From a bacterium (GTDB taxonomy: Bacteria; Patescibacteriota; Minisyncoccia; UBA6257; JAGOQP01), in assembly GCA_021844025.1 (NCBI GenBank), contig JAKBUF010000001.1:1-52652 (forward strand): a DNA stretch of 52,652 nucleotides, read 5' to 3'. This document shows positions 12,529 through 17,669 of the stretch, one piece after another (positions within the stretch are counted from its first letter, which is position 1; each line of letters starts with the position of its first letter). Under the pieces are notes generated by a model. That model worked only from the letters and a program-made list of their open reading frames with translations. It was not told the origin of the DNA and did no database searches. The translations under genes and the position numbers were made by a program.

Positions 12529-13695
12529 TTATTTCTTCTGACTATTCTCTATAATTAATTTTAGTTTTTCAACTAGCACATCTATTTCTTTTTTGGTGGT
12601 TTGTTTCCCAAAACTAATGCGCAGACTTTCTTGCGCCTGGGTGATAGATGCCCCCAGCGCTTGCAACACACGAGAAGGAGCTACGCTCTGTTGTGAGCAT
12701 GCCGCCCCACTAGAAACCGCAATTCCTTCCAAATCTAACGCAATATCTGGACGCACTACTCCCGGAAGATACAGTGACACCATGTGTGGACTCATATATT
12801 CATCGCTTCCATAAAACTGAATGTGGGGAATGTGTTTTTGTAATTGTTCTTTAATATATGTGTGTAATTGTTTTAGATGTTCCGTTTCCTTGTCTTGGTT
12901 TTTTAAAATTTGTTTTATTGCTTCTGCGCATCCCACGATTCTGTCTGTTGATTCGGTTCCTGACCACCATCCATTCTCTTGCCCCCCTCCTTGTACTAAC
13001 GTGTCTAATAGTGGATTTTGCGGCATAACTAACACCCCCACTCCGGTTGGCCCATATAGTTTATGAGCTGATATTGTTATGAAATCAGATCCTTGTATTT
13101 CTGAAAGTGATACGTGCCCAATTCCCTGCACTGCGTCTGTGTGAAAAAATGGGTATACAGTCTGATGTTTTGCGCGATATTCATGTAATACTTTTATAAT
13201 TTCTTGGGTTGGTTGCATGATTCCGGTTTCGTTATTTACCCATTGTACGGACACCAGCGCGGTACGCGCGGAAATTTGTTCTACAAGCTTACGCGGAGAA
13301 ATTTGTCCATTGGTATCTACGGAAAGAATGGTAAGTATAATTTCTTCATCACGCTCCAGCGCACGGGCAACTTCGTATACCGATGCATGTTCCAAAGGAG
13401 AAATAATAATTTCTGGAGTAATGTTAGGAAATAATTTTTTAAAGCGCTGCACGACTCCCCGTAATACCAAATTATTTGCCGCCGTTGCTGAAGGAGTAAA
13501 AACTATCTGCTCTTGCGCATAACTAAATACTTCTGCAATATCGTTTCGCGCTTGGTCTATAAACCCGCGCATAATTTGCCCCTCTTGGTGGATGCTGTTG
13601 GGGTTACCGGTGTGTTCTTGCACCTCATGCATTGCTTCTGCTACATGCGGATCAAGTGGTGTTGTCGCGGCGTAGTCTAAATAGATTCGAGTCAT
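12529..13695 (-). CDS. Cysteine desulfurase (class V aminotransferase, NifS/IscS-like)
   Basis: PLP-lysine motif SAHKLYGPTGVGVL and active-site loop SSGAACS. Confidence 0.85.
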   Translation of the reverse strand: MTRIYLDYAATTPLDPHVAEAMHEVQEHTGNPNSIHQEGQIMRGFIDQARNDIAEVFSYAQEQIVFTPSATAANNLVLRGVVQRFKKLFPNITPEIIISPLEHASVYEVARALERDEEIILTILSVDTNGQISPRKLVEQISARTALVSVQWVNNETGIMQPTQEIIKVLHEYRAKHQTVYPFFHTDAVQGIGHVSLSEIQGSDFITISAHKLYGPTGVGVLVMPQNPLLDTLVQGGGQENGWWSGTESTDRIVGCAEAIKQILKNQDKETEHLKQLHTYIKEQLQKHIPHIQFYGSDEYMSPHMVSLYLPGVVRPDIALDLEGIAVSSGAACSQQSVAPSRVLQALGASITQAQESLRISFGKQTTKKEIDVLVEKLKLIIENSQKK

Positions 13696-13701
13696 GAAAT
13701 T

Positions 13702-13707
13702 AGTATA
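13702..13707 (-). promoter_or_regulatory. TATACT -10 box 6 nt upstream of the desulfurase ATG (leaderless-type)
   Basis: The minus strand reads ctcTATACTaatttcATG. No SD is possible. Confidence 0.4.
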
Positions 13708-13990
13708 GAGGAGAAAAGAAAAAGTATAAAGCGCGGGTGGTGTGTTTTAAAATTGAACATACCGTGTGTTAATTCTGACTCATAAAAATTCCACAGATTC
13801 AAATGTATGTTCTCTATATATTTCTTATCTGTTTGAGTATGTGGATTATAATTCATATGATAAATAGATCATATTCTATAGACATATTAGGGTTTAAGAG
13901 GTAGCACGGCGAGGATATTTACATATGTATTATGGTGTGATTTAATGATGTCAGCAAACCACCAAAATAACTAAGGTCTAAGAGGCTACA

Positions 13991-14317
13991 ATGATTAGAA
14001 AGGTTAGAAAAATACTAAAGGGTTATCTTGATATACCCGAAAATGTTTTGGAGACTATAATTGATCTTTTTAAAAAGGGAGTGTCCACCAGTGTTGTTAT
14101 TTTTGTAGATGACGGTCTGGAAAAAAATTCCGACGTAAAGACAACGTGCGAATATTTTTCGGGGCTCAAGAGATTAGATTGGTTTAATAAGAAATTAATG
14201 CAGGCAGGAGTTTACAAAAGTGTTGGAGTTCAGACAAAACTAATCAAGATGTACTGGAAACACGTGCTGATACTAAAACCAATTAAAACTAAAACAATTG
14301 TCACCTGGACGCATTAA
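13991..14317 (+). CDS. Hypothetical protein
   Basis: 108-aa ORF with an AGAGG RBS and a strong terminator downstream. Confidence 0.45.
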   Translation: MIRKVRKILKGYLDIPENVLETIIDLFKKGVSTSVVIFVDDGLEKNSDVKTTCEYFSGLKRLDWFNKKLMQAGVYKSVGVQTKLIKMYWKHVLILKPIKTKTIVTWTH

Positions 14318-14358
14318 TCTTGAATGGAAACTTACCCACATGGTTAGGATTAACTGTT

Positions 14359-14387
14359 AAAACCCCCGTTATCGGGGGTTTTGTTTT
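14359..14387 (+). terminator. Intrinsic terminator
   Basis: aacccccg-ttat-cgggggtt followed by ttgtttt. Confidence 0.7.
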
Positions 14388-14430
14388 ATCCGTGCTAATC
14401 CGTGTATAGATCTGTGTTATCCGTGTCTTG

Positions 14431-14997
14431 TTAGAACAAGCGCTGATATAACAATCGTTCTTTCCAATCAAATGTTGCTTTTTCTGGTTCGGGGCCATTA
14501 CGAGTGGGCACTAATAGAAAACCTTGTTTCTTGCCCATATCATATAATTCTTTAGTCACTTTCACGTCGTTCAAACAATATTTTTTTAATTCTTCCATTT
14601 TCCCCTCCCCGTATAAAATTGGCGCGTCCATGCCGTGCCCTGTTTTTCCGTATCCTAAGTTCTGCTTTGCGAGTAAATCTAAACTAATGCGTTTACCAAT
14701 TTGTAATTCAATTTCATCTAAAATATCAGTGCGCGGAATTGCAAACAAATCAAAGTCGTAGTGCTTTGCCATAACCGGCAAGTCAAACCGCGTAATTGAA
14801 AATCCAATAAGCAGTCCAGTATTTTTCATTAATTCTCCTAATTTATCTAGCTCATGTTCATCAAACGCAATATATTTGTCTTGATTATATGAGTATGCGC
14901 CCACCACTGAAATATTTAGGCCAGTAAAATTGTCTCGTCCCACATCCGCAAATGTGTTCTTGGTTTCAATATCTATGACTACGGTATCTTTGTTCAT
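14431..14997 (-). CDS. DEDD-type 3'-5' exonuclease (RNase H-like fold, PolB-exo-like), directly downstream of the DGR RT
   Basis: ExoI VIDIETKN, ExoII GFSITRFDLPVM and ExoIII YCLNDVKVTKELY. It lies 26 nt after the RT stop on the same strand. Confidence 0.7.
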   Translation of the reverse strand: MNKDTVVIDIETKNTFADVGRDNFTGLNISVVGAYSYNQDKYIAFDEHELDKLGELMKNTGLLIGFSITRFDLPVMAKHYDFDLFAIPRTDILDEIELQIGKRISLDLLAKQNLGYGKTGHGMDAPILYGEGKMEELKKYCLNDVKVTKELYDMGKKQGFLLVPTRNGPEPEKATFDWKERLLYQRLF

Positions 14998-15023
14998 GCC
15001 GACACTGTAACGCAGAAAAATTT

Positions 15024-16064
15024 TTATGTCAAAAATCTTCTTACTCGCACCTCTGTCTTTCTATTTCTGCAGTGCGAAAGCACACCAAGATAAGAATCCA
15101 CTGTTCCATAATATGTTGTCTCTGTGATTTCTCCCTGTTTAAATTTTTTACGTGCCAATGCAAGTTTCCGAAGCATTCTCTTTTTTGTTTTGGTGCGTAG
15201 AATGACAGTGCGTGGTAGTATAACATATCCCAAAAAATCAACTCCTTGTGTGAGTTTTCTGATTTCCACCTTTGTTGGATGCAACCCAAGTAATAATTTC
15301 TCTTTCAAAAATGCCCTTATTTTCTCTTTCATTTCTTCCAAGAGTTCTCTGTTGGTGTGTACAATGACAAAATCATCACAATACCGAAAATAATGTTTCG
15401 CTTTTAATGTGTGTTTTGCGAATTGATCTAACTCATTCAAGTATATATTCGCAAATAATTGACTCGTGACATTTCCCAATGGTAGGCCTTTATCCTTTTG
15501 TTTTTCAAAACTATTAAGAATGACATCTATTAGCCACAATGTATCCGTATCACAAATTCTTTGTGTAATAAGATTTCGTAAGAGAGTATGATCTATCGTA
15601 TCAAAAAATTTTCGTATATCACATTTCAAGATATATGTGGTTTGTTTCCAGTTTTTACTCACTTTACGACACGCATTGTACAAACGTCTTACTCCTTTGT
15701 GTGTTCCTTTTTCAAGACGAGAAGAATATGAATCATAAATAAAATGTGTGTCAAAAATTTTATATAGTACACGGAAGAGCGCCTGATGCACAACCCTGTC
15801 TTTTACGTTCGCTTTATGAATGTGCCGCCGTTTAGGATCGCACACATAAAAACTTTTATACGGATCGTGGGTATATGTTTTGGTACTAAGTTGTTTGTGC
15901 AATGCAAACAAATAATCTTCGCTTCGTAACGAAAATAACGCAACGTCTTTTCGTTTTATTTTTCCGCGTTTAAATTCATTCCACGCACGCAATAAATTTG
16001 ATATACTTGCAATATGAAAAAACAAACTTGGAACGCCCCCCCCCCACGGAACCAATGACCCCAT
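15024..16064 (-). CDS. DGR reverse transcriptase
   Basis: RT motifs include LPLGNVTSQ (the [I/L]GxxxSQ signature of DGR RTs) and YCDDFVIV. The protein is short (346 aa) with no maturase or endonuclease domain. TR lies 389 nt upstream. Confidence 0.9.
   Translation of the reverse strand: MGSLVPWGGGVPSLFFHIASISNLLRAWNEFKRGKIKRKDVALFSLRSEDYLFALHKQLSTKTYTHDPYKSFYVCDPKRRHIHKANVKDRVVHQALFRVLYKIFDTHFIYDSYSSRLEKGTHKGVRRLYNACRKVSKNWKQTTYILKCDIRKFFDTIDHTLLRNLITQRICDTDTLWLIDVILNSFEKQKDKGLPLGNVTSQLFANIYLNELDQFAKHTLKAKHYFRYCDDFVIVHTNRELLEEMKEKIRAFLKEKLLLGLHPTKVEIRKLTQGVDFLGYVILPRTVILRTKTKKRMLRKLALARKKFKQGEITETTYYGTVDSYLGVLSHCRNRKTEVRVRRFLT
16036..16045. repeat. C10/G10 homopolymer in the RT/avd head-to-head overlap
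   Basis: Ten consecutive C on the plus strand. It encodes WGGG of the RT N-terminus and PPP of the avd-frame extension. Confidence 0.95.
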
Positions 16065-16140
16065 TTCGCTTATCCATACGGTAAAAAAGTTATACGCGAC
16101 AGCATATCAGATTGGCACCACTCTTTCCAAACGTGACAAA

Positions 16141-16428
16141 TTGGGTATTCATAGTGAAATTGAGAAAATTATTCTTGCGATATTACAGCTCACCACGCGA
16201 GCCTGTTTCTGCGCAAAAATACAGAAAGAACAGAAAATAAATTATCTCAAAGAAATTCGTATTTCTCTTGAGGTTTTAAAACAATTCGTACGCACGGAAT
16301 ATGAATTGCATATTATTACAGAAAAAACATATCTTATGTTTGTAGCTGTCATTATTACTTCATCTAAAGAAACAAATAATTGGCTTGCGTCACTTATAAA
16401 ACCGAGGACACAAAACCCCACTTTGTAG
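16141..16428 (+). CDS. Avd-like four-helix-bundle protein (23S rRNA IVS protein family), opposite strand to RT/TR; start unresolved
   Basis: LSKRDKLGIHSEIEKIILAIL... matches the FPKxEKFGL-xxQxxRAAxSI pattern. Similarity extends upstream to about 16066 with no in-frame ATG/GTG/TTG. ATG 16014 comes into frame if the C-run is 9. Confidence 0.7.
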   Translation: MGIHSEIEKIILAILQLTTRACFCAKIQKEQKINYLKEIRISLEVLKQFVRTEYELHIITEKTYLMFVAVIITSSKETNNWLASLIKPRTQNPTL

Positions 16429-16452
16429 TGGGGTTTATCGTGTTGAAACTTC

Positions 16453-16564
16453 TGACGGACGCCACCGCTGGAATTGTAGTTATTTACACCGTTGTAGTTC
16501 ACGTCCACCGTGTCATTGTTCGGATTCCAGTTCATGTTCGGCACGCCGCCATCAACCGTACGGG
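16453..16564 (-). repeat. DGR template repeat (TR)
   Basis: 112 nt, 98/112 identical to VR, and A-rich on the minus strand with about 10 AAY codons (NMNWNPNNDTVDVNYNGVNNYNSS). Confidence 0.9.
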
Positions 16565-16859
16565 GCATCTTTCTGTATACATTCATCTCTTACACCGACT
16601 CTCCTGTTGCCAAGATCTCTGTGTTATTCTCGTAGTTATGAGCACTGTGTTGCATCATTATGTATATGAAGTATCTATGCAAAAATATATACAGGCAGTT
16701 TCAGTATGTGGTAAATCACCATACACATTTTTTTGTGCACTGACTTTGCAACCATGTGTATAATAAAAAAGTGCTACAACTTTTGCAAGCCATAGCACAA
16801 TTTATTTTTTCTCTTTTTGTGTAAAAAGGGAAAAAAGATAAAAAGAGAAAAAAGAGAAA

Positions 16860-17669
16860 TCAAACTGAAACCACTTGACGGACGCCACCGCCGGAAATGT
16901 AGTAATCTACACCGCTGTAGTGCACGCCCACCGCGTCAATGATCGGAAACCAGTTCATGCTCGGCACGCCGCCATCAACCGCACGGGAGCCACTGCAAAG
17001 TGTGAAACCCTTCTCATCGAGATGTTTTTTGGTCTCAATGAAATGGATGATTCCATGAACCATTCTCTCAAGCAGAGTTTCACCGACTGTTTTGTTGGGA
17101 TCGACCTGCTTAGTGGATTGATTTCGAAACTTAATATCGCTTTCTTGATCGTCACGAACCCAAATGGCATACGAGCCATTTTTAGAATCACGGATATTGT
17201 CAGTCACTTTAACGTCAATGCTCGTGCCATAGTAGCTGTCTTTCCACATTTTGGCATTATATCCAGAAACAACTTTCCCGTATATGCTGTATGTGAAATC
17301 CATAGTGAGCCCTTTAGCAACAAACAACAATCGCCATTTGCCCTCGGCTGGTTTTTGGGGAACGATAATATCGGTAAAATCAACATCCACGTCAAAATAT
17401 TTTTTATAGATGGTTTGCCAGTATGTTCTCACTTCAGCAAATTCATCCACGGTAACCGCAAATATCGGAGCAAGTGCGATACGGATTTTTTCGGCAAGGG
17501 AGGTTTTATTTTGTAATAATACTTTTTTCTCATCATCCGATAATGAGAAAAAATAAAATGAAATCATTTCAGTAATAACCGAAACGATAAAACCGATCAA
17601 AATCCCCAGTTGTTTAATGTTTGATGCCGCCACGTTTGTGGCTATGAAGTTAGTTCCATGCTTTTTCAT
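16860..17669 (-). CDS. DGR target (variable) protein, membrane-anchored, C-terminal CLec-like variable region
   Basis: 269 aa with an N-terminal TM helix (LGILIGFIVSVITEMISFYFF). VR forms the last ~37 codons (AVDGGVPSMNWFPIIDAVGVHYSGVDYYISGGGVRQ). An AAGGAGAAAAG RBS is present. Confidence 0.85.
   Translation of the reverse strand: MKKHGTNFIATNVAASNIKQLGILIGFIVSVITEMISFYFFSLSDDEKKVLLQNKTSLAEKIRIALAPIFAVTVDEFAEVRTYWQTIYKKYFDVDVDFTDIIVPQKPAEGKWRLLFVAKGLTMDFTYSIYGKVVSGYNAKMWKDSYYGTSIDVKVTDNIRDSKNGSYAIWVRDDQESDIKFRNQSTKQVDPNKTVGETLLERMVHGIIHFIETKKHLDEKGFTLCSGSRAVDGGVPSMNWFPIIDAVGVHYSGVDYYISGGGVRQVVSV
16876..16987 (-). repeat. DGR variable repeat (VR)
   Basis: Offset of 423 nt from TR. There are 14 mismatches, all where TR has A on the minus strand. 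The shared GC-rich 3' end GCGGTGGCGTCCGTCA is IMH-like. Confidence 0.9.

Follow-up and report, generated by a model that had tools for sequence, protein, structure and literature searches.

A frame-setting G/C repeat in the head-to-head overlap of avd and the reverse transcriptase gene: a candidate contingency locus for diversity-generating retroelements of Patescibacteria

The 52,652-nucleotide contig JAKBUF010000001.1 (assembly GCA_021844025.1; this whole stretch is called the window here) comes from an uncultivated member of the Patescibacteria and carries a diversity-generating retroelement (DGR) in which avd, encoding the accessory protein Avd, lies head to head with the gene for the reverse transcriptase (RT). 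The 5′ coding ends of the two genes overlap, and inside the overlap there is a run of ten C, read as ten G on the RT strand, whose length sets the reading frame on both sides. We propose, with a probability of roughly 60%, that this tract is a contingency locus, that is, a simple sequence repeat (SSR) that gates Avd and usually the RT as well, and that the window presents the Avd-OFF state. A first-pass annotation of the window had suggested phase-variable control of mutagenic homing. The repeats, the mixed frames and the length differences found in related retroelements support that suggestion, and it is from these relatives that we infer switching in the window itself.

Results

The tract and the reading frames on its two sides are made up of the following elements:
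16036-16045, either strand: C10 (+) / G10 (-) homopolymer, a frame-setting SSR in the context GGAACG-C10-ACGG
16014-16035, + strand: Avd leader, ATG 16014 plus 7 codons as far as the tract
16046-16428, + strand: Avd body, a four-helix-bundle accessory protein in the frame of 16048, with its stop at 16426-16428 and a match to PF22296
16046-16077, - strand: family-consensus RT leader from ATG 16077-16075 (MDKRNGVIGS...), in frame at C9 and out of frame with the RT body at C10
16062-16064, - strand: second RT start codon, lineage-specific, in frame at C10 (MGSLVPWGGG...) and absent from the sister lineage described below
15024-16035, - strand: DGR reverse transcriptase body, from the tract to the stop, with an RVT_1 match at 1.2e-24

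The first-pass annotation had singled out the tract as the longest G/C run of the window, and a run scan agrees: no other C or G run exceeds 7 in the 52,652 bases (40.6% GC), where independent and identically distributed bases would give about 0.009 C runs and 0.003 G runs of at least 10. The tract is a non-triplet repeat within coding sequence, reading as Pro-Pro(-Pro) in the Avd leader and as Gly-Gly-Gly in the RT leader.

Codon-by-codon reading of the avd strand bears out the frames given in that annotation. At C10 the Avd-like open reading frame (ORF) extends from 16018 to 16428 (+) and has no ATG, GTG or TTG ahead of TTG 16141, and ATG 16014, being out of the Avd frame, opens a 14-codon ORF that ends at TGA 16056-16058. 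A start at TTG 16141 would indeed remove helix 1, since the match to the Pfam family bAvd (PF22296, 7.5e-6) begins at nucleotide 16081 with profile position 7, which places the domain start at about 16063. At C9, ATG 16014 reads into Avd as MKKQTWNAPPHGTNDPISLIHTV... (leader also given as MKKQTWNAPPHGTNDPISLIH...) and ATG 16077 reads into the RT as MDKRNGVIGSVGGGVPSLFFH..., so that nine C join both ATGs to their genes and ten C do not. Two candidate rescues of the C10 state lead nowhere. ATG 16055 overlaps the leader stop TGA 16056, as in translational coupling, but it is in the wrong frame and opens a 9-codon ORF, and a -1 frameshift on the A-run after ATG 16014 would also lead into the wrong frame.

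On the opposite strand, the RT ORF at C10 runs from ATG 16064 to 15024 and begins MGSLVPWGGGVPSLFFH, as had been claimed. The claim that nine C leave the RT an in-frame ATG at 16077 also stands, with the amendment that ATG 16077 is the family-consensus start (RT homologs begin M[NDE][NDK]R[ND]I...GGG) and is itself out of frame at C10. That a slip toggles avd alone and leaves the RT translatable is true here through the lineage-specific ATG 16064; across the family, a change in the tract usually shifts avd and RT together. An analogous second RT ATG in another frame occurs in 5 other species. The sole start candidate past the tract that is conserved in the window and its sister lineage is TTG 16025 (LFFH).

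The surroundings are those of a complete DGR. The RT has the catalytic motif YCDDF (FRYCDDFV) besides its RVT_1 match, and its 6815 homologs are for the most part from Patescibacteria. For Avd, the window scores 26.8 bits against PF22296, under the 40-bit cut-off, and orthologs score 42.7 bits (L014, over the cut-off) or 36-37 bits across the full profile (L010 and L011). The two repeats of the element are:
16453-16564, - strand: template repeat (TR), on the RT strand; avd lies antisense between TR and RT
16876-16987, - strand: variable repeat (VR), at the 3′ end of the target gene 16860-17669 (-), a 269-aa ORF

All 14 of the 14 TR/VR mismatches fall at TR adenines, read on the RT strand, and the layout is one in which avd is inverted between TR and RT.

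Is the assembled length correct? The ENA MEGAHIT contig ERZ27237050 k141_592390, which differs from the window solely by two single-nucleotide polymorphisms in ftsK, has C10, and so does the NCBI assembly GCA_027327665.1, which is identical to the window; C10 is thus reproduced in three assemblies of the window's strain, and the VR is the same in all three, as consensus assemblies. A sister lineage, represented by three assemblies from three samples (L005-L007), is about 87% identical in nucleotide sequence and has C9 followed by G without any indel. Total length and the out-of-frame relation are therefore the same as in the window, and Avd has no usable start in either. Between the two, the leader at 15945-16044 is nearly invariant, with ATG 16014 kept, and 16045-16064 is heavily diverged. 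The window leader followed by at least 6 C had no exact match in the JGI metagenome contigs scanned.

Assemblies tend to break at the repeat. The Logan contig L002 (window 13561-16022) stops 14 nt short of C10, Ns abut the G-run in L087, and scaffold gaps abut the (GGGAC)n repeat that replaces it in some relatives in 3 of 4 scaffolds (L088, L090, L091). Such breaks fit either length heterogeneity or poor read quality.

The avd body is open across 126 and 133 codons in the window and the sister lineage and differs between them at 13 synonymous and 4 non-synonymous sites, a ratio of non-synonymous to synonymous rates (dN/dS) of 0.078, helix 1 upstream of 16141 included. Translation of Avd must therefore begin upstream of 16141. 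On this comparison avd is under strong purifying selection, and must then be expressed at times. Synonymous divergence between the two lineages is 0.18 in avd (16066-16425) and 1.23 in the RT body (15024-16016); this far stronger conservation of avd at silent sites could reflect a second role of its DNA as a spacer of the DGR RNA, or recent recombination.

The first-pass annotation had named the presence of the tract in orthologous DGRs as a check, and we made it in 80 related DGR loci of Patescibacteria, taken from species-representative genomes and reached through the RT. Avd was compared by translating these loci, a homolog search with the C9 reading of Avd having returned only the sister lineage. 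RT homologs (57-75% identical) very often carry GGG a few residues before the motif (L/I/V)FH..S..NL..AW.EFK.GK, in an otherwise unconserved N-terminus. At the DNA level, a run of G7 to G12, with modes at 9 and 10, lies 15-60 nt upstream of the conserved RT motif in 51 of the 80 loci. There are 51 G/C runs of at least 7 in 11.9 kb of junction sequence vs 5 in the remaining 414 kb of the same loci, with the Gs of the run invariably on the RT strand. Other lineages have a different non-triplet repeat at the junction: (GGGAC)x11 replaces the homopolymer in L088-L091, where the RT N-termini RDGTGRDGTG are its translation, and (GA)n does so in L075 and L079, with RERERE N-termini in the P0023/P0142 RT cluster. 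Decayed runs (e.g. GGA GGT GGC) are found in L013 and L018, both with the two ORFs in frame, and L018 retains Gly-Gly-Gly through mixed codons. In loci without any repeat the avd/RT pair is simply divergent, with no overlap.

Two loci without a junction repeat have a run at a shared site inside the RT ORF (L067:3048-3057, G10, and L068:1560-1568, G9; RT on the + strand), as an insert between the ..NSF and GLPIGN motifs that reads SWGGGL and SSGGGD. A possible reading is a second frame switch, acting on the RT and arisen by convergence. About 60 nt ahead of this run, the L067 RT contains one in-frame TGA at the position of a Trp that its relatives conserve (LWL); nonsense mutation, codon reassignment or sequencing error might each explain it.

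An ATG on the avd strand precedes the C-run by 3-25 nt, or by 43 nt, in almost every locus. In the 50 species representatives that could be scored, this ATG shares the frame of Avd in 23 and lies outside it in 27. When no RT ATG follows the run, the two genes are jointly in frame in 15 loci and jointly out of frame in 15, 5 are like the window in having a second RT ATG in another frame, and 3 show the reverse case. An RT ATG downstream of the run is present in 12 loci, so there avd alone is affected. In 7 OFF loci the RT lacks any in-frame start ahead of the conserved motif. The leaders of the ON state resemble the C9 reading of the window (L009 MKTPPHDSDDITIIH, L011 MNEQTNKTPPD..., others MKTPPH... 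and MQKQSQKVAPPP...), and in-frame orthologs such as L009, L010, L011 and L014 enter the bAvd domain at about residue 16.

The overlap is also dually coding. In the C9 state the Avd and RT ORFs overlap by exactly 21 codons, in register and antisense (16014 to 16077). ATG 16014 is the antisense of the RT His17 codon (CAT 16016-16014), and the RT start ATG 16077-16075 lies antisense to an Avd His codon (CAT 16075-16077) that is conserved. The same relations recur in relatives: of 52 loci, 50 have the avd ATG antisense to an RT His codon in frame (register enrichment p = 1.6e-16), and 40 have the RT ATG antisense to an Avd His codon in frame (p = 6.6e-8). In the 40 loci with both relations, the overlap span modulo 3 is 0 in 16, 1 in 15 and 2 in 9, and hence all three frame relations occur among orthologs.

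Repeat number differs among close genomes in three of the related lineages, although rare variants may be homopolymer miscalls and the counts within a lineage are biased by which RT N-terminus was queried. In lineage 1, between identical flanks, nine assemblies have G11 (L093, L095-L102), two have G12 (L094, L103) and one has G13 (L092), the only length at which avd and RT are both in frame. Over the 1.5 kb upstream, TR and VR included, the contigs of sufficient length (L092, L095, L103) are identical. A gapped pattern for this lineage found one contig among JGI metagenomes, with G12. Lineage 2 has G9 in L012 (out of frame) vs G10 in L104 and L105 (in frame) in otherwise identical DNA. Lineage 3 has G11 in six contigs, with G9, G10 and G12 implied by protein N-termini. 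Single RT clusters at 90% identity likewise combine identical RT bodies with all three upstream frames, e.g. MNNRNVKNCVGGGG / MSKIASGGG / MRRGGG.

Eight of the G11 contigs of lineage 1 (L095-L102) come from different samples, and their TR and VR match one another. Identical VRs together with an out-of-frame consensus tract point to a quiescent DGR in this lineage, as far as assembled contigs can tell.

Discussion

How would such a tract act? In the mechanism that we propose, the 5′ coding ends of avd and RT share a short antisense overlap, and the hypermutable repeat within it would serve as the contingency locus. In the ON state (C9 or C12), translation from ATG 16014 would pass through the tract as Pro-Pro into Avd, and translation from ATG 16077 would pass through it as Gly-Gly-Gly into the RT. 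The window is one C longer than an in-frame length; its Avd leader would end at TGA 16056, leaving the Avd domain startless, and the RT would be made solely from ATG 16064 or TTG 16025. During replication, slipped-strand mispairing would lengthen or shorten the run by one C and so turn Avd reversibly on or off, and the RT with it in most relatives. Length changes of this kind would be replicative, reversible and frequent. In the DGR of the Bordetella phage BPP-1, the only one that we know to have been studied biochemically, Avd is reportedly required for RT-driven cDNA synthesis. By that analogy, the OFF state should freeze the VR and abolish retrohoming, and the ON state should let adenine mutagenesis resume. 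For the clade as a whole, we lean slightly towards a common Patescibacteria DGR switch, built on Gn, (GGGAC)n or (GA)n, in which one slippage would turn the whole targeted-hypermutation machinery on or off in a heritable and reversible manner.

We favour phase variation because the repeat site is conserved while its type and length change, frames are mixed, lengths differ within lineages, locked variants exist and avd is under purifying selection. Several observations speak against it. The window's own lineage shows no tract-length polymorphism among its three C10 assemblies and the three C9+G assemblies of the sister lineage, and the two share their out-of-frame offset at about 13% nucleotide divergence, a better fit to fixed recoding than to fast switching. 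The G9-G13 variants of the relatives sit in otherwise identical contigs, where miscalled homopolymers could account for the rare ones, and the +1 variant of two lineages comes from one JGI metagenome. The relation between His and ATG codons could partly be a by-product of conserved His residues. Finally, OFF predominates even where VRs are diversified.

The main rival of phase variation is a recoding site. DNA length would then be essentially fixed, and in-frame Avd (and RT) would arise by RNA polymerase slippage on the long G/C run, with transcripts of mixed length, or by +1 ribosomal frameshifting at CCC-C, where Pro-Pro-Pro stalls the ribosome; expression would be low and constitutive rather than heritably ON or OFF. 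Long homopolymers favour transcriptional slippage, and CCC-C with poly-Pro stalling favours +1 frameshifting. For the window's lineage this is attractive, since the window and its sister, though diverged, both need exactly +1 (offset 1), avd is strongly selected though its consensus is out of frame, and OFF-consensus lengths prevail in several lineages. Programmed sites, however, hold one frame relation, whereas all three are found here and about 40% of the loci need no shift at all. The prevailing OFF states even have both offsets, -1 for G11 in one lineage and +1 for G9 and G11 in two others. Moreover, tract length differs at the DNA level, and (GGGAC)n and (GA)n are no classical slippage or +1 sites. 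Taken over the clade, recoding seems to us unlikely.

The remaining explanations are less probable. The first-pass annotation had itself offered an assembly error as its alternative: a true tract of C9, an ordinary ATG for avd and C10 as an artefact. C9 does put both family-consensus ORFs in frame, and long G/C runs are error-prone, as the Logan contig that ends just before the tract and the Ns at the run of L087 recall. An error is nevertheless improbable because three assemblies agree on C10, including the MEGAHIT contig that is two polymorphisms apart, and the three sister-lineage assemblies keep the same total length and frame; moreover, an out-of-frame tract is the state of 27 of 50 species representatives, and nine assemblies reproduce the out-of-frame G11. 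The run might instead work as nucleic acid, independently of frame, as a G-quadruplex or polypurine element in the TR-to-RT transcript or a Shine-Dalgarno-like G-run for TTG 16025, or else remain from a Gly3/Pro3 peptide motif. The RT strand is invariably the G-rich one, (GGGAC)n has the form of a canonical G-quadruplex motif, the run lies in the 5′ untranslated region about 20 nt upstream of the RT ATG in 12 loci, and L018 has kept Gly-Gly-Gly with mixed codons. We hold this to be very improbable: (GA)n lineages are unable to form quadruplexes and G8-G10 is too short for an intramolecular three-tetrad one, the junction RNA has no Rfam match and its fold is not significant (z = -1.0), neither TTG 16025 nor the downstream ATGs lie at a Shine-Dalgarno distance from the run, the encoded peptide is wholly different by repeat type (RDGTG, RERE), and Avd would be without a start codon in most loci. 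Decay of the element, with Avd a frameshifted pseudogene in a dying DGR, is hardly credible. It would account for the lack of a usable Avd start in the window and its sister, but the long open avd frames with their low dN/dS, the intact RT and the restriction of TR/VR differences to adenines all contradict it.

Phase variation of this sort would have familiar counterparts. Known contingency repeats include poly-G/C tracts of 8-13 within the 5′ coding regions of genes for surface or restriction-modification functions, and repeats of four or five nucleotides in mod and lic. As in the SSR contingency loci of Campylobacter, Neisseria, Haemophilus and Bordetella, the repeat of the DGRs is non-triplet and lies in the 5′ coding region; there too G/C homopolymers of 8-13 nt are strongly over-represented against background, repeat number differs among close relatives, as the assemblies of the DGR lineages suggest, in-frame and out-of-frame states are both common, and some tracts are interrupted and locked ON. 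The differences are that the gated function is here a hypermutation machine, Avd plus RT, not a surface or methylation gene, that one repeat in a codon-aligned antisense overlap of divergent genes usually shifts both of them, and that the hosts are uncultivated Patescibacteria. With the DGR of BPP-1, which has avd, TR and brt on one strand and mtd as target, the element shares a DGR-clade RT, an Avd four-helix bundle, TR/VR differences only at TR adenines and a VR at the 3′ end of the target. It differs in that avd is inverted between TR and RT, with the 5′ ends overlapping head to head and a frame-setting repeat within; we know of no such repeat control in DGRs of the BPP-1 type. Programmed slippage or frameshifting (dnaX A9, A-runs of insertion sequences, Shigella mxiE T9, +1 at CCC-C) resembles the locus in that a homopolymer parts a start codon from an ORF in another frame, and in the window the shift needed is +1 on a poly-Pro-coding C-run. 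Unlike those sites, the DGR junctions vary in repeat type and in DNA length, and their frame relation is unconserved.

Outside classical bacterial pathogens, hypermutable repeats of T2 and T4 phage genomes have been proposed as bet-hedging switches (bioRxiv, PMC12633550); its genes and hosts are others, and the switch proposed here is chromosomal and sits on a retroelement. The full-text literature that we searched, a coverage to which Paul et al. 2017 on DGRs of the Candidate Phyla Radiation does not belong, held no paper joining DGRs or Patescibacteria with homopolymer or SSR phase variation, and the terms homopolymer, phase variation and SSR were not found in a 2024 DGR survey. Both SSR phase variation and DGRs are well known by themselves; the novelty appears to lie in their combination through a single repeat in a codon-aligned antisense overlap of both machinery genes.

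Why would a mutagenic retroelement be placed under such a switch? Control of DGR mutagenesis is largely open, and unrestrained mutagenesis of the target should be costly. If our reading is true, most cells would keep a frozen working variant while a minority diversifies, and a mutational switch would be controlling a mutator. No regulator of this kind would have been described before for DGR activity, nor any contingency locus in the Candidate Phyla Radiation. The mutual antisense of start codons and His codons is in itself an unusual and compact design for overlapping genes. There is also a practical side: gene callers miss or truncate avd and RT, so that surveys requiring an intact Avd or RT will under-count or mis-class elements that are out of frame.

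Other features of the locus

In public gene calls for the window's lineage, avd (16018-16428, +) is not called, and in its place stands a 127-aa ORF (16380-16763, +) on the opposite strand across the TR that is in all likelihood spurious. Among relatives, the calls for avd and RT are frequently truncated or begin at starts in an alternative frame (N-termini e.g. WTIEIS, MIVIS).

Directly downstream of the RT, a 188-aa 3′-5′ exonuclease (DNA_pol_A_exo1 / RNase H-like) is encoded at 14431-14997 (-). We considered it as a DGR accessory, but it is not beside the RT in the 80 related loci and is probably outside the DGR. A look-up of the 269-aa target protein gave no recorded match.

The target gene is followed by a terminator-like hairpin (16760-16798, -). 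A sigma-70-like promoter, TTGCAA-17-TATTAT (-), overlaps the 3′ half of the hairpin and runs on downstream of it, just upstream of the TR; in the promoter scan it was the sole match, with no sigma-70-like site at the junction. Its predicted position suggests that TR, antisense avd and RT may be read as one transcript.

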